A DNA stretch of 64,000 bases from Amoebidium appalachense (Eukaryota; Protista; Ichthyosporea): positions 8,971,408 through 9,035,407 of the forward strand of contig CAVNZM010000009.1 of assembly GCA_963693365.1 (NCBI GenBank), given 5' to 3'. The notes under the pieces are model-generated. The model was not told where the DNA came from and made no database searches. It saw only the letters and a program-made list of their open reading frames with translations. The position numbers and the translations under genes are program-made. Positions 3,066-63,452 of this stretch are shown here, in pieces; positions within the stretch are counted from its first letter, which is position 1, and each line of letters begins with the position of its first letter.

Positions 3066-4002
3066 ACAACCCCCCGTCCCCCCAGGGGCACTGCGGAAAG
3101 TATATGCCCGTAGATACTATCGCCACCAAGCCAAATGACGCCAGATTCTTCCTCCCTCCCCCCCCCCCAAAAAAAAAAATTACTATAATAAAAATAAAAA
3201 TAAGAATAAAAAGAGAAGAAAAGAGCACAGACACACAAACACCACATTGCCGTGCCCCGCACTTTTACAAAAATATACACCAACACACACACACACACAC
3301 ACACCCGCGTGAATCAAGGGCGGGTATGTCTGGTTAATGTTTTGCACTCCACAGTTAGGGTGCCTGAAATGATAGCATACAAAGTTGACTTTGACAAATT
3401 CTATACTAGTTGTACAGTACAGTAGACAACTAGGTAACTTTTATTGATGTGCCTTTTAATCTTCTATTAAAATTTATGACTTACGTGGGCATTCCCGTCA
3501 TTTACACTATACCAACATTACGTTCATACACATAATATCATAATTCGTGGATGATACATTTTCTAAAAAGCTAAATTTTAAGACACGTTATACGGTGCGT
3601 CACAGTCACTACTCAATCGCTATTAATAGTAAAACCTATGCACACTGTGCACCTCTAAGTTAACACCCCTGAAACTGTGGCATACTGTATTAGTATAGCT
3701 CATATTCAGACTCTGGCTAGAACTCTAAGGCAGTTACTGATGGATATATCTAAACAGCCCACATTCTACCCATGCCACTATTCTCCAAATTCTACAATGA
3801 ACATCTACACAACAGGGTCCGGTAAAATAGTTATAGCTAAAGCACAAAGCGCCCCGGCTTACTGAGAATGAAAAAAAAAAAGAGGCCTAATATATTGACC
3901 TGGAGGAGCAAACCAGTGCACAAGAAAAAACCAGACAAACAAAACAACGGCTTTAAAAAAAAAAAAAAAACGGAGAGGAAAAGTCTGTGTCATGGAATTA
4001 AA

Positions 4003-5366
4003 CTACACGCAAAAAGTCCATGCACAATTTGGATAAGGAGGGGGTGGTAGCATCCCCACATCAAGCCCCCCTGGGTATGCGGACACACCAACCACAGTGC
4101 GTTCAAATACACAAATATGAAGTGGTTTCTCAAGTTGATATGAGCAACATCGGGCAGAGGTGCCCTCTTACATTCCTCAACAATAAACGGGGACCCAACA
4201 TGTTCGTAGAAAAACGGAGCAGGGAGGCTAACCACCAAGTCGTTCTTGTTCACAGCGCGCAGCGTCTTGGGCAAAAGTCCTAAAACCTGCTCATAGTAAT
4301 TTTTAAACCCCCCATTTCCTACTTTTGGTGAAGCGAACGCAAACACTCCCCTCACATCCCACCCCAATTTGCTAAACCTTGCACCAGCTAGAATTGTGAC
4401 AGCAGCACCCAAACTATGACCGGTTATGAAGATGGGGCAGTTCATAGGGGTGCGGCCCATTGATAAGCATGCTTTAGCCACACCCACCTCCAGACCCTTT
4501 TCAGCCAGGTCAATGTACACGAGGTTGTATCCGGCGTGCACCAAAGCAGAAGGACCACCTCCATAAATTTGGTCGGCTGGCTTGAGAGATATACCCATTA
4601 AATTGGGCGTGATATCCTTCATATCCTGCGAGCCTTGGATAGTAACTATCACCATATTTTCTGTACGTAGAACCGCAGCCTGGCTCTGAAGACTTGTCAC
4701 AAAGAACTGAGTATCGCGGACGCCCATACATGACTACCAGTTTTTCTGGTTGTCATTCAGAACATAGGCCTGAAACGCGATAAGGCCCATTAAATACACG
4801 TTGTTATTGCTGTTTATCCCCGCCTTCACATTCAAAACATCGGGCTGGTTGAGGACTTCTTTGAACGCGTATTTGTCACATTGAGGGAACGCTTGAAAGA
4901 AAAATGGTCCTTCTTTAGGGTCGGATGGGAGCGGCAGTTGAACGTTATTTGCTACAGGAACCTTGGAGTAATATTGAGACGTCCAATCAGTCACATCTTG
5001 TGCTCGCGGAGGAGCCCGTGTAGGGGGAGGGGCGCATGGACACGCACCGTCACATCTCTTCACTTCTCCCGCTCTCAACTTGAGACAGTCTAGATTTCTA
5101 TACTCTCTGTTCTCTGTGCTGCATACGTGTGCTTCGGGGCCTTGGTTACAGTTGTTCACTGAACTTTTAGAGGGCAAACCTACGTTGAACACGCTGCTTG
5201 CTGTTTTTTGAGCAAAATCGACCACCTGACCTATGGGGGATGGTTTGAAAAAGTTTATGACTCTGTCTAGGAAACCCCAGCGCTTTTCACGGTGTTTGGC
5301 TTCGACAGCTAGGGTAAAGAAAGCCAACGTGAAAAGCAGGAACAAACGAAAATGTCGAGCCCCCAT
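4003..5366 (-). CDS. secreted class-3 lipase with N-terminal Kazal-like module (copy A); in-frame TAG at 4734-4736; conserved C-terminus in the -1 frame after G6 at 4066-4071
   Basis: Signal peptide, REKR|W dibasic site, VCSTENREYRNLDC...CDGACPC, VHAGY, ITGHSLGAA, FASPKVGN, NKNDLV, NH. ORFs 4734-5366 and 3990-4727 are in the same frame and colinear with the paralog at 7046. Confidence 0.85.
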
Positions 5367-5725
5367 GATGCATATGCATGGAATCAGCTAATTTGTAGTA
5401 AGCTTAAGTGTTGTTTGGGTTATAGATGCCATGTACTACGTGAGGGAACCAGCTCGCTAGAAACATTACGTTCAATTACTAGTTTCTCTGTTTCAGACTA
5501 TCACCATGCTTTGTATGTTGACACAGAACTACTTTGACTGAGCAGTGAGCACATGCTCACTGACACCCCCGGGGGAGGCCTGAAGTAGGGCTGATCCGTG
5601 GGGACTCTTTTTAAACATTGGAATGTATAGACAACCAATCATCTGCTCCGAGCTTATCAGAACTAGATAGTATCATAGTTCGCATCTCCGAATCAATGGA
5701 AGCCCCGACACAAAACGCTGGATAA

Positions 5726-6131
5726 TGAGTCCCTTCGCGTGGATCTAAATATCTAAATACTCGGCGAATTTAAAGAACGAATGTCGTTCTCTAAAACGAA
5801 TGTCGTTCTCTAAATGTCGTTCTCTAAATATCTAAAAGTCTGCTCGATTCGTGTAGAGTAGTTTAGAAACTAAATTATCTAGATAGTTAATCGCGATTCT
5901 ATTGGATAAGAGATAGTTAGGCGAGTTCCAAGAACCAATCGTCTCATCCCAGACATCTAGAAGACCCCCCCCACCCCCTCTTCCAGATGCGCCCATCTGG
6001 AAGAAGGTCGAAATCAATCTAGATTTTATGCAATTTTTAAACATTTAACAGATTGATTGGATTGCAACAATTTTATACGCAAATTTAACAATCTAGATAT
6101 TTAGATATCTAGATTCACGCGAAGCGGCTCA
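5726..6131. mobile_element. MITE-like element with ~35-bp imperfect terminal inverted repeats
   Basis: Left end TGAGTCCCTTCGCGTGGATCTAAATATCTAAATA vs reverse complement of right end TGAGCCGCTTCGCGTGAATCTAGATATCTAAATA. Internal AATGTCGTTCTCTA x3. No coding capacity and no clear TSD. Confidence 0.65.
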
Positions 6132-6388
6132 ATATTCGTAGAGGGTAAAAACGTAAACACTTGTCTAGCACTGTGTTTATAACTGGAAAATATTTATTAT
6201 ATGATACGTACTACATACATAAATCCCTCCCAAATTCTGTTCGAGCTTCCAAGTTTTCGAGAACTACCACCCTTTATCCATCGCAGGTGGAATGTAAACA
6301 ATGCACGTGCCAACACCGTTAAAAAGCGTTCATTTTGATTCGCTAAAGCCGCACCACGCAAAAAAAACGCGTCAACTTACATCATACG

Positions 6389-6454
6389 CTAACACGTACT
6401 GACGTGTTGCCGCACGTGCGACGTTTAGTGCATAGGCCGGCACATAGGCATTTT

Positions 6455-6489
<35 letters not shown>

Positions 6490-6986
6490 AGACACCGCCC
6501 CAGTAGGTGGTAGCATCATACGGCACCGTGATGTGGTGTGCTCAGTCGACGTCAGCGTGTAGCCCCGTGGGAGGCTCCTTTGGAGTGCGGCACTTGGCCC
6601 GTGTATGTATGCCTATGTGCCGGCCTATGCACTAAACCCGTCCACACTCCAAGTTATCAATGATGCATATATATATATGGCCACACTAGCCACATTATGA
6701 TATGCGGATATGATATTGCTGTGTTCTCACACCTAACATCGTAGGTACACAGTGTACATGATGTACGTAATATCGTTGTGCTCGAAAATAGTTATGAAAG
6801 CGTGCGAGGTTTAGGGGACATTTTATTGAAGTGAAAATTTTCATTAATACAGTAACTGCCTACCACCTACTGAGGCGGTGTCTCCTTTCTTTTTATTTTT
6901 TTTTATTTTTATTTTTTTATTTACTTAAAAGCCGCCTGAGTAGATGTTAAACGTCGCACGTGCGGCAACACGTCAGTACGTGTTAG
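6389..6986. mobile_element. non-autonomous foldback/MITE-like element with ~125-bp TIRs and a nested inverted repeat
   Basis: CTAACACGTACTGACGTGTTGCCGCACGTGCGACGTTTA...A-run...GGAGACACCGCC.CAGTAGGTGGTAG (6389-6513) is mirrored at 6858-6986. 6424-6451 is mirrored again at 6609-6636. Confidence 0.75.
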
Positions 6987-7045
6987 AGTAACTGCTGTAC
7001 TTACCATAACCGTACGTACAGTAGTACAGCTTTGAACTTAAAAAA

Positions 7046-8604
7046 ATGGGGCCTTTTCGGCGCCTCTATGTGCTCCTTCTGTGCATTCTAGCCTTTTCTA
7101 CGATAGGTGTCGATGCCAAAAACAGAGAAAAGCGATGGGGTAACTTCTTTTCAAGAATTGTCAATGCCGTGAAAGAAAGTAGCGTGGTGACAACTGTTAG
7201 CAACACAGTGCAACAGGCAAAGGCATCGATCACAAACACCGACACGTACAAATCAGCAGCAAACATAGTGAACTCCGTTGCTGAAAGCATACAGCAAAAA
7301 AGCACACAAAAGCCAACTTTTTCAGCGGCAGATGTTGGAAATGCCGCACAAAATCTCCTACAAGAGATAAAAACAGTGGTCGGGACGGCAGCTCAAACCG
7401 TATCGGAGAAAGTACAAAACTCGGCCGTTTACCAACTGGGAGAAGCAACTGCTCGATGTGTTTCCTCACCGGAGCTGCGTGTGTGCAGCACAGACAATCG
7501 CGAATTCAAGAACATTTACTGCCTCAAGATAAAGTTGGGTGAGGTGAAAAGATGTGATGGTGCATGCCCGTGCGTTCCCCCTGTGACCAGGTCTCTTCCC
7601 AGGCAGAAGTTTACGACTGATTGGACATTGCTTTATTACAGCAAGGTCCCTACCTCTAACACAATTACGGACGTGACACCCCCAGAACCAGCAGAGGGCC
7701 CATTCTATTACGCGCCATTCCCCCAGTGTGAAAAATACGTATTTAAAGACATTTTTAACCGAGCGGACGTGTTTGATGTGAACGCAGGCATCGGCAGCAA
7801 CAACAACGTATATTTAATGGCGCTGATTGCCTTCCAGACCTACTCCTTCACACAGAACATGAAGGTTTGGTGGACGTGTTTGGGTGTCCGCAACATCGAC
7901 ACGATTGAGACTCCCGGGGCTAACCAGGCTGTTGTCCTGCGTACGGACTTAGCGGTCATTGTTTCTTTTCAGGGGACAAAGGATTCGGAAGACAACACAT
8001 CGAACTTTGACGGCATACAACCCCGCGCAAACCAAGCAAACTACGGCGGGGGCCCGGATGCTAAAGTACACAACGGGTATGACGATGCATTTATGGACCT
8101 GCAGAACAACGGCAAAATAGAATGGAAAGTACTGTCCGCATGTGCGCAGTTGAACAAAAGTCCGCAAACTTGCCCAATAATCATTACTGCACACAGTCGC
8201 GGGTCTGCGTTGGGTACCTTAGCGGCCGCTAGATTTACACTTCTGGGGTGGTCGGTGAAAGGTGTGTTTTTGTTTGCTTCTCCGAAAGTTGCAAGCCCCA
8301 CATTTAGACGTTATTATGAGGATACACTAAAACTGAAGGACAAAACCTTACGTGCGGTGAACAAGAACGATTTGGTCGTTGGGCTTCCTCCGGCCTATTA
8401 CGAACATGTGGGGAATACAATGATTGTGGAGGAATGTAGACGTGCACCGTTGCCCGATGTTTCCTACTATAACTTGCGACATCACTATGCGTGGGTGTAT
8501 CTAAACGCACTGTGGTTGGTTTGTCCTTTTGCAGAGGGGGGCTTGACATAGGTATGCTGCCGCCCCCGCCTTATCCAAATTGTGCCTGGTCCTTCTGCGT
8601 GTAG
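7046..8604 (+). CDS. secreted class-3 lipase with Kazal-like module (copy B); 0-frame ORF stops at 8551, conserved -1-frame tail ends at 8604
   Basis: 501-aa ORF with signal peptide, REKR|W, VCSTDNREFKNIYC...CDGACPC, VHNGY, ITAHSRGS (GxSxG variant), FASPKV, NKNDLV, HH. Confidence 0.9.
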
Positions 8605-11571: not shown

Positions 11572-12486
11572 GAGGGGAGGGGGTACGGGGGAAGGGGGCA
11601 GCTGAGCACCAGAGGCTTCGGCTGCCATGCCGGCATACATAATCCTTATAAACAAATACACGTGCATATGCTCAACCTTTCAGTACCTATTGAGTAAAGC
11701 GCTAGCGAGTGAGAGATTGTGAAACGACGCATGCCCACGCCGGAGACACACAACCTTCGAATTCAGGAAGACACAAACGCAGTGAGCTCGCACGCGCGCA
11801 CACACAAACTACACTACACCGACAACACCCAAACACGTAAGCACACCTAAGTAGTTCAAGTAGCACATACACACGCCCACACGACGCGCCCGCATAGGCT
11901 GTGAGTCAGGCACACAAACACATACCAACGCCCCGCGCACAGACATATACACCAAGGGCACGTATAAGTTTTTGCTAGAATAATATTGAAGTTTGCTCAA
12001 CACGAATATGTGAAGAAAAAGTTGGTAGCTTAAGGTGTGGGAAGGGAGGACGGAGAGGAAAAAAGATAACGGTTTTGGAAGAGGGGACCCATGACCGTCA
12101 ATGAGAGATTCGGTGGGGCTCGTAATTACAAACAGCAAACCACACGCTTAGCTGGGGCTTAAGGTAAGAAGGGGGAGACACACTAACCAAGAAAGTCAAC
12201 GAAACACAAAAGTAAAACGTGAAAAACAGCTGAAAAGTCGAAGCGGCGATTGGCTAATATTCCCCCCAAAACCGGCCTGTTACTATTTGTGGAACAGGGG
12301 ATGCCATTTTCGGAACAGGCATCACTCCGGCCTGACCCGGATTTCAGCTGCAGATCGTGACGTTTCCGTTTCCAGGCCCGGGTGATAAGGAGGCCTTGAC
12401 AGTCACACCCGTAGTCCCGTACGGCAAAGGCTAAGTTCGTCCAGATTCTTTTGTTTGCGCCTGTTTCTCCTCATCACACACCAACA

Positions 12487-14710
12487 ATGTGTCAAGTCAC
12501 CAGCACACCCGCCCCTCTTAGGGAGCTTGCAGCGCGGCTTGCACCCCACCTACCCCCCGACAATCTTCTTTCGGAGCCGCAAGCCCCCTCAACGCTTTCT
12601 CCTGCGGGCGAAAAGCTCTGGCTTCTCTACGCGCTTGCCTACGAGGTGCATATGAACGCGAGCCCCATCTCTGCGTCCATGATTGGTGATTATCGCTACA
12701 ATGACCAAATTGGGGATCGCTCACGTGAGGGGTTTGACAAGGTCAACCGTTGCTACCAGAACATTCTTGAAGAGGCTGAGAAGATTGACGAGAAAGATCT
12801 GAGCGAGGAGGTGGAGAACTTGCTGTTCTTGAAGGAACTGTGCAAGTCTGAGGTTCTCAAGTGAGTGCGCAAGATCTTCCGATTCCTTATTCTTTTTTTT
12901 TCTTCTTTTCTTTATAAAGGCTTTTGCAGGCTTTCCTGCCTTCGGCTGTTGAATTCTTGCCTGAATTTGAGGTAACTAGGGTAAGGGCTAGCAAGATTTG
13001 GGAGGGCGGGGATCCAGGTTTGATGTGTAGTAATACAATGGAGAGTCTGGAAAGGGGGAGGAGGGGGGGAGGGGGGGGGGGTTGGCGGGATAGGTTCCAA
13101 TAACAAGAAGTAAACAGGATTCTCTAGTGATAGCATGGAGGCAGACCCCTTTCATAATAATGCATTTGAGACCCCATCCATTACCTCTTTCTTGCTTCTT
13201 CCCTCATACATCCCCCCCCGGCCCCCTCCCCCCCTCTATTCCCTACCTGCAGCTCCATTCGTCATAATACACACTTTAACACACACTAATCACGCACATA
13301 CCCATCTAACAGGCACGAAGATTGGCAGTACGCCATCCCTCTGACGCACATGTTCGGTGCCTTCAACACGTTCATGGGCCTGTCCAACTTCAGCCCTATA
13401 CGCGATGCTAAAGATGCGGCTGACTACCTGAAGCGCATTAGGCAGTTTCCCCTACTGGCAGATCAAATCATCGAGGCGTTCAAGTTTGGGATCAAGCAAA
13501 AGACCACCCTCCCCGCTTTTTCCATCGAAGCCATCATCTCCCAGTTCCAAGCACAAGTTGACACCCCACCAGAAAACATCATTATGTACAAGGGGAAGGA
13601 GGCAAAGATGAGAGAGGTGGGTGCCGATGCCGAGGCAGATGGGGTTCTCATCTCCCTCCGGGATGAGTTCATTCCCTCTTGCAAGAAAATTGTCGAGTTT
13701 TTGCGGGCTGAATACCTGCCTGTGGCCCGCGAGTCGGACGGGTTGTGGTCTTGGCCCGACTTTGAGCGTATCTACAAGGGTACACTCCAGTTCTGGACCT
13801 CTACCGATCTGACGGCTGAAGAGGTTCATCGTCTTGGTAGAGTCATCCCTCCCTCCTTTCCTGCACCTCCCCGCCCCCCCCCCCCCCCCCCCCCCCCAAC
13901 CACCCCCAGACACCATCCCCCCCGCACCCCCCCTCCCTTACCCCTGCTTCCTCCCTCCGCCCCCCAAAAGTAGAAAACTGTCATCCCCCTCGCTCCCTCC
14001 CTACCCCCCCCCCCCCCCTCCCCCACGCCCTCTCCCCCCCACCACACACACCACCACCAAACAGCAATCCCCCCCCCCCCCCCCCCCCCCCCCTTACCCC
14101 CCCACCCCCCACCCCTCCCCCCCCCCCAAAAAAAGGGAAAAGATAGCCATCTCCTCTCCCTCTCTTACCCCCCCCCCCCCCTCCTCCCACCCCAATCCGG
14201 CCCCATCGTATCGTCCTCCTCGCCTCACAGCATTCCCCCAATCCTCCCCCCCCCCCTTACCCCCCCACCCCCCACCCCCCCCCCCCCCCCAAAAAAAAGG
14301 GAAAAGATAGCCATCTCCTCTCCCTCTCCCCCCCTCCTCCCCCCCCCCCCCCCCCCCCCCCCTCCTCCCACCCCAATCCGGCCCCATCGTATCGTCCTCC
14401 TCGCCTCACAGCATTCCCCCCCCCCCCACCCCCCTCCCCCTCCCCCCCCCCCCCCCCCCCTGAAAAAGGAACAATGGCATCATGCGCAAAATGCGTCCTT
14501 CTTTGCTTTCATTACCCCCCCCCCCCCCCCAAAAAAAAAAAAAACAAAAAAACAAAAAAAAAACGCGCCGTTGCCCATTTCCAACACCCCCGACCCATCT
14601 ACCCACATTATTGCCCTCCATTTCCCCTCCTGCCTCCCGGGTGCACGGGGACCACCTACCACCTACCGAGCGATCAATTGCCTTAATTGTTTTCCTGGAT
14701 GCTGGATCCA

Positions 14711-19936: not shown

Positions 19937-21022
19937 ATGATCTACATGCAGCTTTTATTAGCCGCCTATTTGGCTGGAATCACACTTGGCGCTGTGGTTG
20001 AACCGACCCGCACAGACCAACTTGCCGAAGGGAACCCCACCGACCAGGTCGACTCAACAGACACCGTTGCGGAGGCTGACGATGGTTTTGCCTTTGGCGA
20101 AAAATGGCAGGCACTGAACGTGTTTGGCGGCCAGTTCAAGTCCGTGGCGCGCACGGCTGAGCTGCAAGAACGCACGCTTTTTACGGGTGTATTCAAGGAG
20201 TTAGACCCCAACCGTCCGTTCAACAGTGATAGGGCAGGAGACGACAGGCGTGAGGTCGACCTTCCCTACGAGGAGTTGCTCATGCGCGCTGCATTTGACT
20301 CCGTTGAGGCCCCGAAAGAACCCGGCGTCCCCTCCGTGGTGCAGCGCACTGTGCTCGACCCAGACAGCAGCGAGGCTAAGATGGCACTCTATGAAATGCT
20401 TAAACGAATGGCCGAAATGGAAACCCTGCACTCCTACGGCGCCGTGCCCAAAGACTCAAAGGAGCCTGCAACGAATCCCACCGTGCAACAGCGTGTAAGA
20501 CGGTTTATTTTTGGTGCTGACGACCGCACACATGTCGCAAACAGCAAAAACTTCCCCTACCGCACTGTGGGCATGGTCGGCAACCACTGCACGGGCACAT
20601 TGAAGTTGTTCCTTAATGCCCTTATCACTCTCGAAGAGTCTCCGAGCGTCGGGTGGATGTCGTTTGGCTGGCACACAGGCATCAGCTCTGGGTGGAACTT
20701 TAACATTAACGGATACCCTGGGGACAAGCCGTGGGGGCAAATGTTTAACCACTTTGGGGCACTGATTGACGCAAAGAGCAAGCAGCTGCGCCACCGCATG
20801 GACACAGTACCAGGCACAAGCGGGTCGGGCATGTACGTTAAGTTTGACAGCGGGTTAAGGCGCATATATGGTGTCAGCAATGTGGAGGCTTCGAAGGTTG
20901 TTATTGAGTGGCCGTGGTTCTGGAACTGGCACTGGGAGAAAGACTACAATGCGGGTGTGCGTGTGACAGAGAGTCGCTTTGCCCTGATTTGTGGGTGGAT
21001 GAATGAACCGTCTGTGTGCTAA
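19937..21022 (+). CDS. secreted S1 (glutamyl-endopeptidase/V8-like) serine protease precursor lacking the catalytic His and Asp segment
   Basis: Signal peptide, long propeptide, RVRR|FIFGADDR, FPYRTVG, CTGTL, GYPGDK, DTVPGTSGS. No TAAHC or DYAL-type Asp. No introns. Confidence 0.85.
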   Translation: MIYMQLLLAAYLAGITLGAVVEPTRTDQLAEGNPTDQVDSTDTVAEADDGFAFGEKWQALNVFGGQFKSVARTAELQERTLFTGVFKELDPNRPFNSDRAGDDRREVDLPYEELLMRAAFDSVEAPKEPGVPSVVQRTVLDPDSSEAKMALYEMLKRMAEMETLHSYGAVPKDSKEPATNPTVQQRVRRFIFGADDRTHVANSKNFPYRTVGMVGNHCTGTLKLFLNALITLEESPSVGWMSFGWHTGISSGWNFNINGYPGDKPWGQMFNHFGALIDAKSKQLRHRMDTVPGTSGSGMYVKFDSGLRRIYGVSNVEASKVVIEWPWFWNWHWEKDYNAGVRVTESRFALICGWMNEPSVC

Positions 21023-21726: not shown

Positions 21727-22049
21727 GGGGGCAGGAAAAGAGGGGAGGTGGAGGCGGGGGATGTGTGGGTTGGTGGGTAGGGAGGGGGGAGCCGGGGGGG
21801 AGAGGGTGATCTATATATATAGGTACTCAGACTTCCAATATGTGGAAATAGAAGTTTGTGATGTCGACAGATAAATGAATAACTTTGTTGGGAACCCATT
21901 GTTCATACATAATTAAAGATTTATAAGCGCATTTGATATTGGCACTTCAGACTGTGAAAATAGCATTATTGGTATTTAGCGACTTTGCTGTAGGTTAAGT
22001 TATTACACTGATGTATTCAATGTAGATAATGGGAACCGTTGATGGCATA

Positions 22050-23790
22050 TAAATAGTACTCCGGGACGTCCAGTTACGGATGCAGTTGTTCGTTCAGCAC
22101 AAGATATTGCCGATACAATGCGCTACTTGCATCCCTCCTATGCTGCCCGTAAACCAACCCCCCCCCCCCCCCCCTCCTTCCTCCCCCTCCTCCCCTCCTT
22201 CCTCCCCCCCCCTCCCCCCCATCCCCCCCCTCCCCCCCCCTCCCCCCCCTCCCCCCCTCTCTCTCTCCCCGGGGATCCCCTGCTGCCTTCGTGCCCCAAC
22301 ATGGTTAATTGGTCGAATCAAATTCTGTAATCTACCCCTCAGCCCTGACTGCTGCCGGCGGTTTTGTTTGTGTTTGTAGAATGGGGGGGGGGGGGGGGGT
22401 CTAACAGTGCTTCAGCAGAGCACGGAAGCGACCAGTTACTCAGTCAGTGGCGATCAAGGCTGCAATCGACATCGGGATGGACCAGATTGCCTCGTGATTG
22501 CTCACCTAGGCAGAGTTCGTGTGGTAGTCGCCCAGCAATCAAGGACTTGACTCGTGGGAAGGACTCTCAAAGGGTTGTAGAATGACCGTGGGAAAAAGGG
22601 GTTCTAAAGAGAGCGGGGTTGGATGGGGAGGGGGGGGGGGGGGGGGGGGGGGGGGAGAATGGAGGTTTGAGTGGGAGTATTTTTTTGTTGTTATTCTTCA
22701 AGTTGTTTGTTTGTTTGTTTGGTTGGTTTTTTTTGTTTTCTTTTCTTCTGGTCGGAAGGGGGGGGGGGAGGGGGGGGGGGGGAGGGGGGAGGGGGGAGGG
22801 GGGGAGGGGGCAGGTGTTAATACGATCACCTACATTGTATACTATAATAATTGGCACTATGTCATACACATATGTTGAAGCAAAGACCTCCGAGCTTTCT
22901 ATCACATTTTCAAAAATTTTCAGGTCAGCAATTCGTCTCATCCGATTCAATGTGCTCCCTCCACCACTCCCCCTTCCCCCCCCGGCCCCCCCCTCGCTTC
23001 CCTGCTCCTTCCCCCCCCCTCCCCCCCCCTCCCTCCCCCCCCCCCCCCCCCCCCCCCTTCTTCCCCAAAACTGGCCCAACTCGATACCAAACGGGGGGAG
23101 GGGAGAGGGGGGGAGGGGGGAGGATGCTTCCTTGCTGCTTCCTTCGTGCCCCAACTTGGTCTCCGGACTGAGTTATCTAGACCTCTCTGCCACTCCATCC
23201 CCCCCCCACCTCCCGGAGGGGAATAACATGATGTAATGTACCCCACGGCTGAGGGCAGTTAACTCTTTGAATTATAGACCCTACCGCGGCGGATTTACCT
23301 AAGATTTAAAAGTGAGCGGCCTCTGTATGGGATAGCTCCTGTGTATCCTACAGTATGTGCTAGATTGTGTACACATTTGCCCTATCGTTATGGGCTAGCT
23401 CGCATGTGTCTGTCTTGCTGCCATTCTCTTAGGGCACTGGAATTGTTGCAAGAGGATGACGTCACACTGCCACTGCTGCCAGTGCAGTCCTGTCGGCCCA
23501 TTGGGCCGAGAAAGGTGGACCAGTACACAGGCAACGGTTGGGGGCTGGTGGGAGGAGGGGTGGGACTACGAGACCTTGTGTGTGGGAGGGAATGCGAAGG
23601 AGAAGGGGGGAGGGGGGGTGGGGGGGGGGTGGGAGCGGGGGTTTTCTGTTTTACCTCATTATCAGTGAGAGGGGGAGAGAGGGGGGGGGGGGGGGGGGGG
23701 GAGAGGGGGGGGGGGGAAGGGGAGGGAGAGAGGTAGGGAGAGAGGGAGAGAGGGAGGAAGGAATAAAGAGAAGGGGGGGGGGGGGGGGGG

Positions 23791-23821
<31 letters not shown>

Positions 23822-24066
23822 GGGGGGGGGAAGAGAGAGCGAGAGAACGAAAGGGAGAGAGAGAGAGAGAGAGAAACATGGACATTGGAGGAGACTGAAG
23901 TATTTTTTTGTTTTAGATTCTTGGTTTTCTTTTTTTTTTCTGGGGGGGGAGGGGGGGGGGGGGGGGGGGAGGGGGGGCAGGAGGAATTGGGGGGGGGGGG
24001 GGGGGGGTTGGCTTACCACGTAAGATTATTGCACGTAATTTATGTACTTGATTGGTCGGGGTGGGT

Positions 24067-24111
<45 letters not shown>

Positions 24112-24254
24112 GAGGGGGGGACATGGGAACCTCAAGCTAGGTGCAAGGGACCCAAGAGAAAAGGTGCCTTTTACTTATATTGCCCAACGTTTCTTTAAAT
24201 TTTCTTCATGCTTTTTTTCCGAGAGGGAGAGAAGGGGGAAGGGAGGGGGGGGGG

Positions 24255-24288
<34 letters not shown>

Positions 24289-24582
24289 GAAAGGGGGGGG
24301 GGGGGGGGGGGGGGGATGGTAATAGCGTTACTAAAAGTAAAGGAAATACACACAACATGCACACAAACGCGCAAACACACACGTTGTGGCATGCACACAC
24401 AAAGAAGCAGACACACAACACTCGCGCTTAAACACGCCTTCTCGGACCCAAACACGCTTGCGCGCCTGTCGCACGCACACCTGCAAGTACCCTTTCCTAA
24501 ACCATTCCAATCCACGGCCCACACATCCGCCTGTTAGATTTCCCACATGCTCCCCTCCTCCAGGACCTCCTCCCCCCCTCCC

Positions 24583-24654
<72 letters not shown>

Positions 24655-24953
24655 ACATACATACATACACGCCAGAGACACACCACCACTAGCACGTACA
24701 AGAATAAAACTCACCCTTTGCATTGACCTTGTGCTCACCGACACATTTAAGCATTATTCAGAAGCAACAGGAGGGCACCGAGCTATGCTATATGACTGTC
24801 ACAGGCATCATGTCTGCAGACCGAACGGCTAATGTTGTGTCATGCATTGACGGTCAGGATTCAAAGGTATTTTTTTCTTTTTCGGTGGTGGTGGGACGAG
24901 GAGGAGGAGGAGGGAGGGGGGGAGGGGAGGGAGGGGGGGGGGGGGGGGGGGGG

Positions 24954-24992
<39 letters not shown>

Positions 24993-26032
24993 ATCGTATG
25001 GGATTGTTCCTGTATTTAGAAATACAAGTGCACGGAGTGTGGAGTGTGGCTGCTGCCGGGTTGGTGTTTTTTTTTTTTTTTTTTTTTTTTTTTTGAGGAG
25101 GGGGGGGGGGAGGGGGGGGAATTTCAGCAGTGTTTCAGCAAAACAGTTTTCTTGATAGTTCAACTAGGCAGTGTTCATTGGGGTGGTCGGCCAGCAATCA
25201 TGGACTTGGTCATCGCAGGGTTGCAACACTAAAAATTTCACACAGGAGCTTTCTCGAGTCCCTTGTGGAGCACAAGGAGGAATTTAGTTGCTGAGAGAGG
25301 GAGAGGGAGAAGGGGAGGGAGAGGGGCAGGGAGAGGTACAGGTGGAAGGAGAGGGGGAGATAGATAGAATGAGATAGAGGGAGAGTGACAGAGAGGCAGA
25401 GAGAGTTACAGTCCTAGAGAGAGAGAGAGGAGGGGATGGGAGGGGGGAGGGGAGGGAGGACTTGGGGGAAGGGGGGGGCCACGCTTTTTAGCACTGTTAT
25501 AGTTCCAGCAGCAGCAGATGGAGCGACCAATCAACTTGAATCAGAGCATCAGTAATACGATGCACAGCAAGAATCCACTGGATTATGTGGCACAGACAGC
25601 AATTGCTATGCCTAGTGATATTTCAACTGGGCAATACACTAGGTCGGATTGCCTATGTGAAATTTTCAATGGCTTTGCTTCGCTCCTCTTGGAATGATGA
25701 CGTATTGAAGGGCTGGGGGAAGGGCTACCCAATATACCAAATGACGCTTTAAGTAATCAAAGTTAAAAATATGAATAGAAAACAGGTTTTGGTCAAATAT
25801 TTTTATGCATAACGCGACACACATTTATTGTATAAGCAACATAGGGTGTCCGCCGCTTATTTTATGGTGAAAACTAGAAACATCCATGATTTTGTCATAG
25901 ACGATCGACCAGGGCCCTGACGGTCGGAGCCTTAGCCGGACGGTTTCAAGTTGCCGATTTTGACGATGAGGGAAGCGTCGGACATCACGGGCACCCTGTA
26001 TCATTATTACGCGTTTTTTCATTTCCTTTTTT

Positions 26033-26117
<85 letters not shown>

Positions 26118-26912
26118 AGCAGATGAGGAATTCCTGCAGCTACAGGCACAATTCACGGATGGCTGCCGCTGGGTGGGTAAGGGGCTGGGGAGAAGGAAGG
26201 CGAGAGGGGGGAGAGGGGAGGGGGGAGAGAGCGAGTTGAAGAGAGAGACAGGAGAAAGGTGGGGGGGGGGGGGGGGGGGGGGGGGGGAGACTCTCTGAGT
26301 GGGGGGGGGGGGGGGGGGGGGGGAGTTGTCTACGTACTAGCAATGCTTCAGCAGAATAATACGGGAGCGACCAATCATGAACGATTGTGAGTGGTGCGCT
26401 CCGCACCATACAACACTGCCAAGTGGGTCTGCCAGTCTGCATCATGACACCTCATGATGATCAGCTAGGCAGGGATCAATGGGTTGGTCGCTCAACATAC
26501 GGGGACTTGGCTCACAGGAACACCCCTCTAACAAGTCGGCTGTAATTGTGGGACAAACGGGTTGGACTCTAGTCATGATGTGGTAGCCGCATGTTTTCTT
26601 GCTAACGTTGCTAAATGACACGTAAGCATGCATCAATGTGCGAGAGCCCGGGCCTCGGCCCATTCATAGCTACGTTGCATTTCAACGGCCAGGGAACTGC
26701 AGGATATGACAGATATGACACAAGGGTGTTTTTGTCTACCATTATGGGCTATAGGTTGTGTGTATCTATGCAGCAGGCACGGCTATGACGTCACACTGCC
26801 ACTGCCCCAGGCACAGCCAGTGTAGTCCTATCGGCGCATAGGCCCGAAAAGGGCCGGCGAGTTCACAGGCAAGTTGGGGCCTGCCGGGAGGATCCGGAGG
26901 GTGGGGAGAGGG

Positions 26913-26964
<52 letters not shown>

Positions 26965-27035
26965 GGGGAGGGGGAGGGGGGGGGGGGGGGGGGGGGGGGG
27001 GGAAGAGAGGTGAGCAGCGGGGGGGAGGTGAGCAG

Positions 27036-27068
<33 letters not shown>

Positions 27069-27108
27069 AGGCTTGCCACATCAGTATGTACACTTTGGGT
27101 GGGTGAAT

Positions 27109-27143
<35 letters not shown>

Positions 27144-27406
27144 CCTTCTTTTTTTTTCTTTTTTGTTTCGAGGGGGTGGGGGGGGGGAGAGGGGGAGGAG
27201 GGGCGGATTTGGATCTAAAAAGGGGAGAGGGGAGGGGGGGGGGGGGGGGGGGGAGTGAGAGAGAGAGGCAGAGAGAGGGAGGGAGAGGGTACAGGGAGGG
27301 AGAAAGAGAGGGAGGGGGAAGAGACTCGGGGAGGGGGGGGGGGGGGAGAGAGAGAGAGAGAGGGGGGGAGAAAGAGAGGGAGGGAGGGAGGGAGGGAGGG
27401 AGGGAG

Positions 27407-27470
<64 letters not shown>

Positions 27471-27490
27471 CTGAGTGAGCTTTCGTACCC

Positions 27491-27521
<31 letters not shown>

Positions 27522-27972
27522 TTCTCCCCCGGGGCCACCTCAAACCACGTCCCCCCATCACCCCCCGTGTGTTTTTTGCCTTTTTGCCTCATTTTATTTA
27601 TTTATTTATGTATTTACTTTTTTTGTTTTATGGGGGGGAGGGGGGGGGGGGAGCGTGGGGGGGCGGGAGGGGAGGGGGAGGGGGGGGGGGGGGGGCTGCG
27701 TTTCCACGCTGTATCAACGGTACTACGTCGGTCGAAAAGGGGGACGGGTGGGGGGAGGGGGGTAGTATTAACAAGAATATTGAGAGGCGTTTTAAGGGTT
27801 CTTTTTTTTTTTTTAAGAAAAAAGGATCTTTTCTCTTTCTTTTTTTTTTTTGGTTGGGGGGAGGAGGGGAGGGGGGAGGGGGGAGGATTGGATACTAGTA
27901 GGGTATGGGGATATTCTGTGTCAGCAACAATTGCACGGAGTATGTATGGCTGCTTCCGGGTGTACACGTAAA

Positions 27973-28004
<32 letters not shown>

Positions 28005-28430
28005 GAAGGGGGGGGGGGGAAGGGAGGAGCTCACTTCTAGCCGGGTTATAGTTTCAGCAGAACATATGGAGTGACCAATCATGTCAGCGGTCCGCGGCAC
28101 CATTCCCGGAGGCAGATAAACCTCTGCCTCGTGCTACTTCATGCGTAGCTAGGCAGGATTCATTGGATGGTCGCCCAACCAGTAGAAACCTGGTCCACAG
28201 AGAAAGGAACTCTCAAAGGGTTCGAGTGTGATTGTGGGACGGGCACAGGGGTTTAGATCTAGCCATAATGTTTGCAGCCTGACCGGTGTTATTTGTTTTT
28301 TGATGGCTCACGTGGGAACGTGCAAGAGCCCAGGACTTAAGTCACAACTATAGACATGCATGCCATATCCCCCCCCCCCCCCCCCCCCCCCCCCTCTCCG
28401 GGGTTGTTGCCCGGCTCGTGCACTTTACCG
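22050..28430 (+). ncRNA. tandem array of diverged structured-RNA-like units: U1 ~22270-23540, fragment ~24010-24160, U2 ~24770-25230, U3 ~25485-25660, U4 ~25900-26900, U5 ~27700-28430
   Basis: Colinear shared blocks: TGCACGGA..TGGCTGC, T(T/C)CAGCA, G(C/T)GACCA, TGCCT..CTAGGCAG, TGGTCGC, GGACTTG, CTCTCAAAGGG, GAGCCC, TTATGGGCT, TGACGTCACACTGCCACTG. No reading frame is conserved. Helices are retained by compensatory and G-U substitutions. Confidence 0.6.
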
Positions 28431-29961: not shown

Positions 29962-41930
<11,969 letters not shown>

Positions 41931-62473: not shown

Positions 62474-63038
62474 TATTCAGCCAAACCCCATGGGTTTTGA
62501 AAAATCTTTTATTTCTTTATTTACACCTTTTTTCAAACCATCCTACTTACATTGTGTGCGAAATATATTTTGTGTGGCTATGATGTTAATTGTGTGTTTT
62601 TCGGCCAATCAAAACACTCGGGCCAGCCTAATTGGGTTAAATTTTAAATTCCGAGGTTGCGAATTAAATTGATCTCAAGTGATATCCCTCTTCCATTTTG
62701 CTAACCAATCATCAATTACCATGTTCGTTTTTGTCCAACAATCTTGATTCTCAAGGTGACGAAATAATTCAGACATACCATAACGAGAAAGGTGTACTTG
62801 GCATTCTTTTTGTAGTGCTATGGTTACTGTGAATGTGTACGCTCTCAGTCACAATCATATTTATCTGTAATTTTAAATATCGGTATTACTGTGTTTGTCT
62901 GTATTTACTAAGTTTGACACTTTATCTGTATTTACGGTGTTTGACACGAATAGATATACCCATATATAGATATACCCATCAGCTGGGTAATATATATATG
63001 CTACCCAGAACAAACATCTTCGCACAGTCACAGATATC

Positions 63039-63227
63039 ATGGGGTGGTAAGAGCAAGAATCGTGTTTTGACGACATGGGGATGTGAGCCGAATGTCCAAA
63101 GTTTGCCTCGATTTGATTGGTGGGGTTCAATGGCTGACATGCCGAACCAATCAAATCGAGGCAGATTTCACCATGTGGCTCACATTCCAATGTCGTCGAA
63201 ACACGATTCTTGCTCTGACCACCCCAT
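63039..63227. mobile_element. ~190-bp near-perfect palindrome (MITE or hairpin-RNA locus)
   Basis: ATGGGGTGGTAAGAGCAAGAATCGTGTTTTGACGACAT..TGTGAGCC..TTTGCCTCGATTTGATTGGT pairs along its length with the right half, leaving a ~25-nt centre. Confidence 0.75.
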
Positions 63228-63452
63228 AGTACTGGCCGCTTTTGTCATCTGACTCTGTAAATGTAAATGCACATTATCAGAGATGGAATTTTGAATCCCC
63301 AAAGCAATGCTCAGCCTATGTAAGTGTGCACCTCAGTTGGAGCATCAGTATGAAGTTGTGTAAATAAACGGCTGTGTATGGGAATCTTGAAATTGCAACT
63401 GTGGAACGTATTGGTTTTTTTTTTTGTTATTGTGTTTTTTGTTTGTTTTTTT

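Follow-up and report, generated by a model that had tools for sequence, protein, structure and literature searches.

An uncatalogued, decaying tandem family in the genome of Amoebidium appalachense that shows some constraint and includes one copy with a predicted stable fold

What kind of element is repeated, in diverged and mostly broken copies, in the gap between two protein genes of Amoebidium appalachense? The array lies within 64,000 nucleotides of contig CAVNZM010000009.1 (positions 8,971,408 to 9,035,407; this whole stretch is referred to below as the window, and all coordinates are those of the window). An earlier note had described it as a tandem array of non-coding units with a conserved multi-helix fold, i.e. 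as a structured RNA of up to about 1 kb or an RNA-based mobile element. The present analysis revealed that the array is an uncatalogued, decaying tandem family, which shows some constraint and contains one copy predicted to be well folded.

Organization and genomic setting of the array

Comparison of the region with itself by blastn and island alignments identified six copies of one repeated unit between positions 22270 and 28365, all placed on the same strand: three near-full (U1, U4 and U5) and three partial ones (U2, U3a and U3b). The earlier note had recognized three near-full and at least two partial units with ordered sequence blocks, and the 18 motif positions quoted there that we searched for were all found in place. 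The similarity between the copies is well beyond chance (blastn E values of 3e-15 to 6e-5; z of 7–29 for the island alignments), and the cores of U1, U4 and U5 are about 61% identical. The repeat is therefore genuine and the six copies share a common ancestry.

The best-preserved copy, U4 (26118–26905), is composed of a 5' block, a purine tract (about 26172–26332), the core and a 3' block. U1 (22270–22612) contains the 5' block, a G/T tract (about 22355–22402) and the core; in U5 (27905–28340) the 5' block is followed by a (GT)n/G tract (about 27960–28034), the core and the start of the 3' region. Among the partial copies, U2 (23118–23565) joins a U1-like 5' block to a U4-like 3' block (z of 12.2 vs U1 and 26.9 vs U4) and has no core; the covariance model gave no match to it. 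U3a (24998–25230) carries the 5' block, a T/G tract and the core, with an internal deletion that has taken away the left arm of the central helix together with hairpins one and two, and U3b (25486–25652) consists of the central domain alone. Internal deletions are present in three copies. A TATAAA(A/T) sequence, the sole + strand match between 19 and 30.5 kb, is located upstream of U1 (22048–22054) and might be linked to the array.

The gap occupied by the array is 9 kb long. On the upstream side it is bordered by an intronless open reading frame (19937–21022, + strand) that comes closest to trypsin-like protease clusters of the Atlas (scores of 0.91–0.93), and on the other side by a − strand gene, EF-hand-like by our reading, with its 3' end near 30360; a ZZ finger exon lies at 39855. 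The DNA of the window is eukaryotic and contains many introns. Two RNA runs match a DUF885 gene (+ strand) with 0 mismatches and show it to be spliced at GT..AG; its introns are rich in poly-C and (CA)n, and the intron style of the organism is reminiscent of ichthyosporeans.

Within the window, no additional copy was detected by profile and covariance models (5.4 bits for the next-best sequence vs 53–201 bits for the five training copies). Three extra island pairs (24010/27070, 23540/26876 and 25269/26118) were marginal (41, 36 and 43 of 1000 shuffles, respectively), and seven of the ten candidate pairs tested, including a suspected copy at 24750, were attributed to chance.

A multi-copy, non-coding, folded unit with truncated copies might also be what is left, after local duplication, of a SINE- or MITE-like non-autonomous mobile element. 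However, the copies form one cluster in one orientation, with none elsewhere in the window, they match neither tRNA nor 5S or 7SL RNA, and a B-box-like motif is present in one copy only. Terminal repeats or tails were not seen by eye, which, together with the absence of dispersed copies from the remaining 57 kb, also goes against the RNA-based mobile element of the earlier note. We consider an origin from mobile-element remnants the least probable of the explanations weighed here.

Coding potential

Stops and indels were seen in the reading frames of the units, in agreement with the earlier statement that every frame is broken. A test of coding potential revealed no codon pattern in the substitutions (32 blocks, P=0.89 for codon periodicity); 16 of 38 gaps have lengths that are multiples of three. 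At the Pfam cut-off, no match was obtained for any of the 115 scanned frames, those of the array among them. The absent coding signal and the homology of the copies support the earlier view of a non-coding unit amplified in tandem. When two array frames were used in protein searches, one gave no match and the other a single one (E of 8e-4), which was dismissed as a 14-residue match to a translated tandem repeat.

These results bear on the idea that the units are pseudogenized exon blocks of a multi-exon protein gene, in which the tracts would be old introns and the pairing incidental. Such an origin would account for the tracts, which look like introns and are bounded by GT/AG on either strand, and for one + strand frame that stops at a common place in U1, U4 and U5 (22583, 26543 and 28229). 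Nevertheless, it seems unlikely, given the absence of codon periodicity, the lack of Pfam matches among the 115 frames, protein searches of two frames that returned nothing credible, and a block conservation (see below) that is not produced by uniform decay.

Conserved blocks

In the alignment of U1, U4 and U5, 37 invariant columns fall in runs of at least five, compared with a mean of 11 in neutral simulations, which assumed uniform rates and a star tree. Such clustering was reached by none of the 295 identity-matched simulations and by 9 of the 783 simulations in total. The runs correspond to six short blocks, all of which, by our reading, are placed on arms of the modelled helices. This conservation pattern is the strongest result pointing to constraint; it could equally be explained by DNA-binding sites, splice signals or uneven mutation rates.

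A further block of 21 nt (26785–26805 in U4) is identical in U2 (from 23456) and contains the palindrome TGACGTCA; it is a possible transcription-factor site of the bZIP/CRE type. The palindrome occurs five times in the window; one of these sites (49763) is flanked by the 5' ends of two genes that seem to be divergent. Its presence in the longest identical block fits a different explanation of the array, i.e. duplicated regulatory or other non-coding DNA, acting, if at all, as DNA. In that case the helices would be palindromes derived from one ancestor, the invariant blocks would mark sites of protein binding or relics of splice signals, and the stability of U4 would be partly a local gain. 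We regard this origin as possible, if on balance doubtful; the location of the invariant blocks on modelled helix arms speaks against it, as does the behaviour of the central domain of U4.

Stability of the central domain

The central domain of U4 (26362–26496, + strand) is predicted to form a 12-bp helix (26365/26493) around three hairpins. These central 135–140 nt, a window picked post hoc, have a z of −5.29, which was equalled by 0 of 200 shuffles. The domain is also the third-best locus of a window-wide fold scan (1372 strand-windows ranked by energy residual, with z calculated for the top 40). When the U4 domain was put through one branch of neutral change, of the extent seen among the copies, z fell to a mean of −0.67, and z ≤ −5 was kept in 1 of 278 simulations. 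A z of −5, rare in the window and lost by neutral drift, is not readily expected of DNA that merely inherited its palindromes.

Judged against shuffles, the stability of the domain is strong in U4, weak in U5 (z of −2.09 and −2.7) and U3b (−1.7), and absent in U1 (−0.92 and −0.5). Jointly, the three latter domains (z of −2.7, −1.7 and −0.5) were more stable than neutral descendants of U4, with P of 0.089 for one branch and 0.015 for two. The central helix and the terminal hairpin are predicted in all four copies that possess both arms, with hairpin registers that vary from copy to copy; the hairpin claimed for U5 at 28124 does pair. Conserved 7-bp helix windows numbered 13, vs about 2.6 expected (P of 0.04 and 0.06). 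A fold common to the copies is only weakly supported.

Covariation and consensus fold

The claim that pairing survives sequence change did not hold beyond chance. In a 35-pair model two pairs showed a double-sided change, a number reached by 134 of 500 shuffles; 85.5% of the 131 cells were paired vs 84.2% after shuffling (78/500), and the covariation score was the same as the shuffle mean. The central helix contains no double-sided changes at all and is kept by identity, along with one-sided changes and breaks. Accordingly, the covariation check suggested earlier gave no significant result on the five in-window copies, which, being few and mostly broken, provide low power. Paired columns were more often invariant (45/70 vs 43/114); this excess was not counted, because the helices had been picked from these same sequences.

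The consensus fold of U1, U4 and U5 has an energy of −23.6, matched by 30 of 497 column shuffles. Sets of neutral copies folded equally well in 42 of 138 simulations started from U4, 40 of 149 from U5 and 14 of 175 from U1. In other words, when the ancestor resembled U4 or U5, about 30% of the simulations arrived at an equally good consensus fold by neutral inheritance, and this, like the absence of covariation, favours the origin from duplicated DNA. Of the earlier proposal of a structured RNA, what stands is the stability of the U4 domain and the block-like conservation, but not the covariation.

Competing helices in the 3' region

A 3' domain is predicted at 26504–26563 (+ strand), with helices 26504/26563 and 26511/26552 and with counterparts in U1 and U5. 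All of its 36 cells are paired, with seven one-sided changes and one double-sided change; its stability is no greater than that of shuffles. In U1, U4 and U5 all 21 cells of the local 7-bp helix 26511/26552 are paired. The long-range closing helix described in the earlier note can be formed on paper, but its 3' strand doubles as the 5' arm of this local helix, and a third helix vies for the other arm. A second long-range helix, 26148/26549 (22301/22589 in U1), looked compensated in U1, but it required a shifted alignment and was not recovered by the helix search, and it was rejected. Windows with two double-sided changes arise at a mean of about 0.9 per neutral simulation.

Against shuffles, the 3' blocks gave z values of +0.59, +0.42 and −0.42 in one calculation and of −0.07 and −1.43 in another. 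Since these regions fold no better than shuffles, the claimed RNA of about 1 kb is without support, and folding support is limited to about 130 nt.

Low-complexity tracts and strand

In four copies a low-complexity tract occupies the equivalent position. All four tracts have GT...AG ends on the + strand, and the U1 tract shares its acceptor end with a confirmed intron; an intron reading of the tracts is possible on either strand. The earlier note had favoured the + strand. Folding does point to this strand (a consensus energy of −17.2 was obtained for the − strand), yet the central helix can also be formed on the − strand, as would suit an element acting as DNA, and in polarity the poly-G tracts are like those of − strand genes. 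The G9:C9 ratio is 441:97 in the array, compared with 383:159 and 180:110 in − strand genes and 21:347 and 191:318 in + strand genes.

Homologues and expression

The proposed search of Rfam (Rfam 15, gathering score) was run and yielded 0 matches; at E ≤ 10 there were sub-threshold matches alone, nearly all within low-complexity tracts. Several sequence collections, which contain few eukaryotes, were also searched: viral contigs gave two coding-like pattern matches (12 and 7 bits vs 53–201 for the training copies) and none to the 3' block, metagenomes gave 0 and 0 matches, phages and plasmids none, and none of the 70 pattern matches in prokaryote genomes was upheld by the covariance model.

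Among the 24 runs listed, none contained more than 0.07 of the words of the region. Two of the assembled contig sets (X22 and X23) cover exons of the DUF885 gene with 0 differences and a GT..AG joint, and thus represent RNA from this organism. Neither these nor X24 and X1 cover U4 at 26325–26915, a result that was counted neither way, as a filter discards contigs and U4 alone was compared. The element has no description in the parts of the literature that were searched (including PMC11244446, PMC5560861 and PMC6206976), the supplements of which may carry repeat annotations.

A putative birth-and-death cluster of a structured RNA gene

We tentatively favour, at somewhat below an even chance, the view that the array holds copies of a mid-size structured non-coding RNA gene that contains an intron-like tract and evolves as a cluster by birth and death, U4 being the likely working copy. 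The unit would be transcribed as a non-coding RNA, from which the tract might be excised as a spliceosomal intron, unless the RNA tolerates it as a loop. About 300 nt would be left and could fold into a scaffold with several branches, the invariant blocks supplying protein-binding helix arms and the enclosed hairpins being free to vary. U4 would be maintained and the other copies would be decaying, with turnover of the cluster by local duplication followed by deletion and drift. The explanation by duplicated DNA comes close behind this RNA-gene reading.

A more specific proposal, which we consider very unlikely, is that of a new class: a spliced scaffold or switch RNA of roughly 300 nt, encoded by a protist tandem gene family. 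One of its strands would alternate between the local 3' helix and two pseudoknotting long-range helices, and its variable loop would be a spliceosomal intron.

Mid-size structured RNAs are poorly catalogued in protists. Should the family prove to be real and new, it would be a valuable addition, and its fold would be easier to solve with paralogues of 60% identity. If the array is decayed DNA, it illustrates that, among a handful of paralogues, the semblance of a conserved fold can arise from inherited palindromes and G-U pairs.

Comparison with known RNA systems

The unit without its tract (about 300 nt) is similar in size to SRP RNA (7SL), and the S domain of the latter likewise has a long helix leading into a junction with two or three hairpins. 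In contrast to SRP RNA, the array lacks the helix-8 motif (a conserved internal loop and a GNRA tetraloop) on both strands, the loop of its last hairpin is unconserved, and there is no Rfam SRP match. RNase P/MRP RNA is of like size, and two of the competing helices of the array would cross each other, giving a pseudoknot whose 3' strands are separated by a small hairpin, which is reminiscent of this class. However, formation of the local helix 26511/26552 would preclude the pseudoknot, the one CR-I-like match lies outside the units, CR-V-like matches are at non-homologous places, and Rfam gave no match. As the defining motifs are absent and Rfam is concordant, the element is a member of neither family.

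Group I and lariat-capping ribozymes also have a multi-helix fold and a possible pseudoknot, but by our own mapping the strand order of the array does not fit P3/P7 of group I. The motifs of the group I S element, group II domain V and the hammerhead core are absent, with no Rfam match. Telomerase templates of the TTAGGG or TTTAGGG type are absent from either strand, although the organism's own repeat may differ. Suspected likenesses to LSU rRNA, 5S, 7SK, U3 and hammerheads gained no support from Rfam or motifs.

Tandem non-coding RNA clusters that evolve by birth and death include snRNA, vault RNA and SL RNA arrays. No Sm site, box C or B box common to the copies was found by motif search, and the copies of the present array differ in being about 60% identical and mostly broken. 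The array nevertheless resembles such clusters in its arrangement, with clustered, same-strand copies and truncated members.

Other features of the window

Transcript contigs assembled from two RNA runs of the organism (X22 and X23) define the 5' end of the DUF885 mRNA differently. In the X22 contig (depth 864), window position 12503 is preceded by 28 extra letters, and the joint falls exactly at an acceptor-like CAG; an X23 contig continues unspliced through this 5' end to position 12470. The 28-letter sequence was absent from the whole window when searched at up to 3 mismatches. On the basis of one gene and one contig, it is possibly a trans-spliced leader, and we consider it a candidate for such an element; it may also derive from an exon lying far upstream, or may be an artefact of assembly. 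Further upstream of the gene, 32 nt at 12368–12399 match a different transcript contig, in X22 and X23 alike, which suggests a repeated promoter or UTR motif.

Within intron 2 of the DUF885 gene (14080–14430), visual inspection revealed a local duplication of approximately 190 nt with poly-C at its flanks, which shows that short tandem duplications arise within these tracts. Throughout the window, the sense strand of introns mostly carries poly-C and (CA)n, and the antisense strand poly-G. This polarity is usable as a strand marker for the A. appalachense genome.

Two intronless class-3 lipase genes form a divergent pair, at 3990–5366 (minus strand; interrupted by a stop at about 4734 and thus split into two ORFs) and 7046–8551 (plus strand). 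A database search with the intact lipase gave no homologue. The intergenic region between these genes (5480–5840, and 6380–6450 with 6940–7000) showed stable folds in the window-wide scan (z of −3 to −4.7 relative to shuffled sequences). It also contains short direct repeats (approximately 5778–5830), and the segments 6380–6450 and 6940–7000 display similarity, recognized by eye, in inverted orientation. The inter-lipase region is possibly a small mobile element or a duplicated promoter.

The first-ranked locus of the folding scan, at 63030–63232, was an almost perfect hairpin approximately 200 nt long (−139.8 kcal/mol; z of −16.2; matched by none of 200 shuffles). An Rfam search with this hairpin returned a miRNA as the sole match, below threshold. 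The mismatches and bulges inside the hairpin are consistent either with a long precursor of miRNA or siRNA or with an element of the foldback type.
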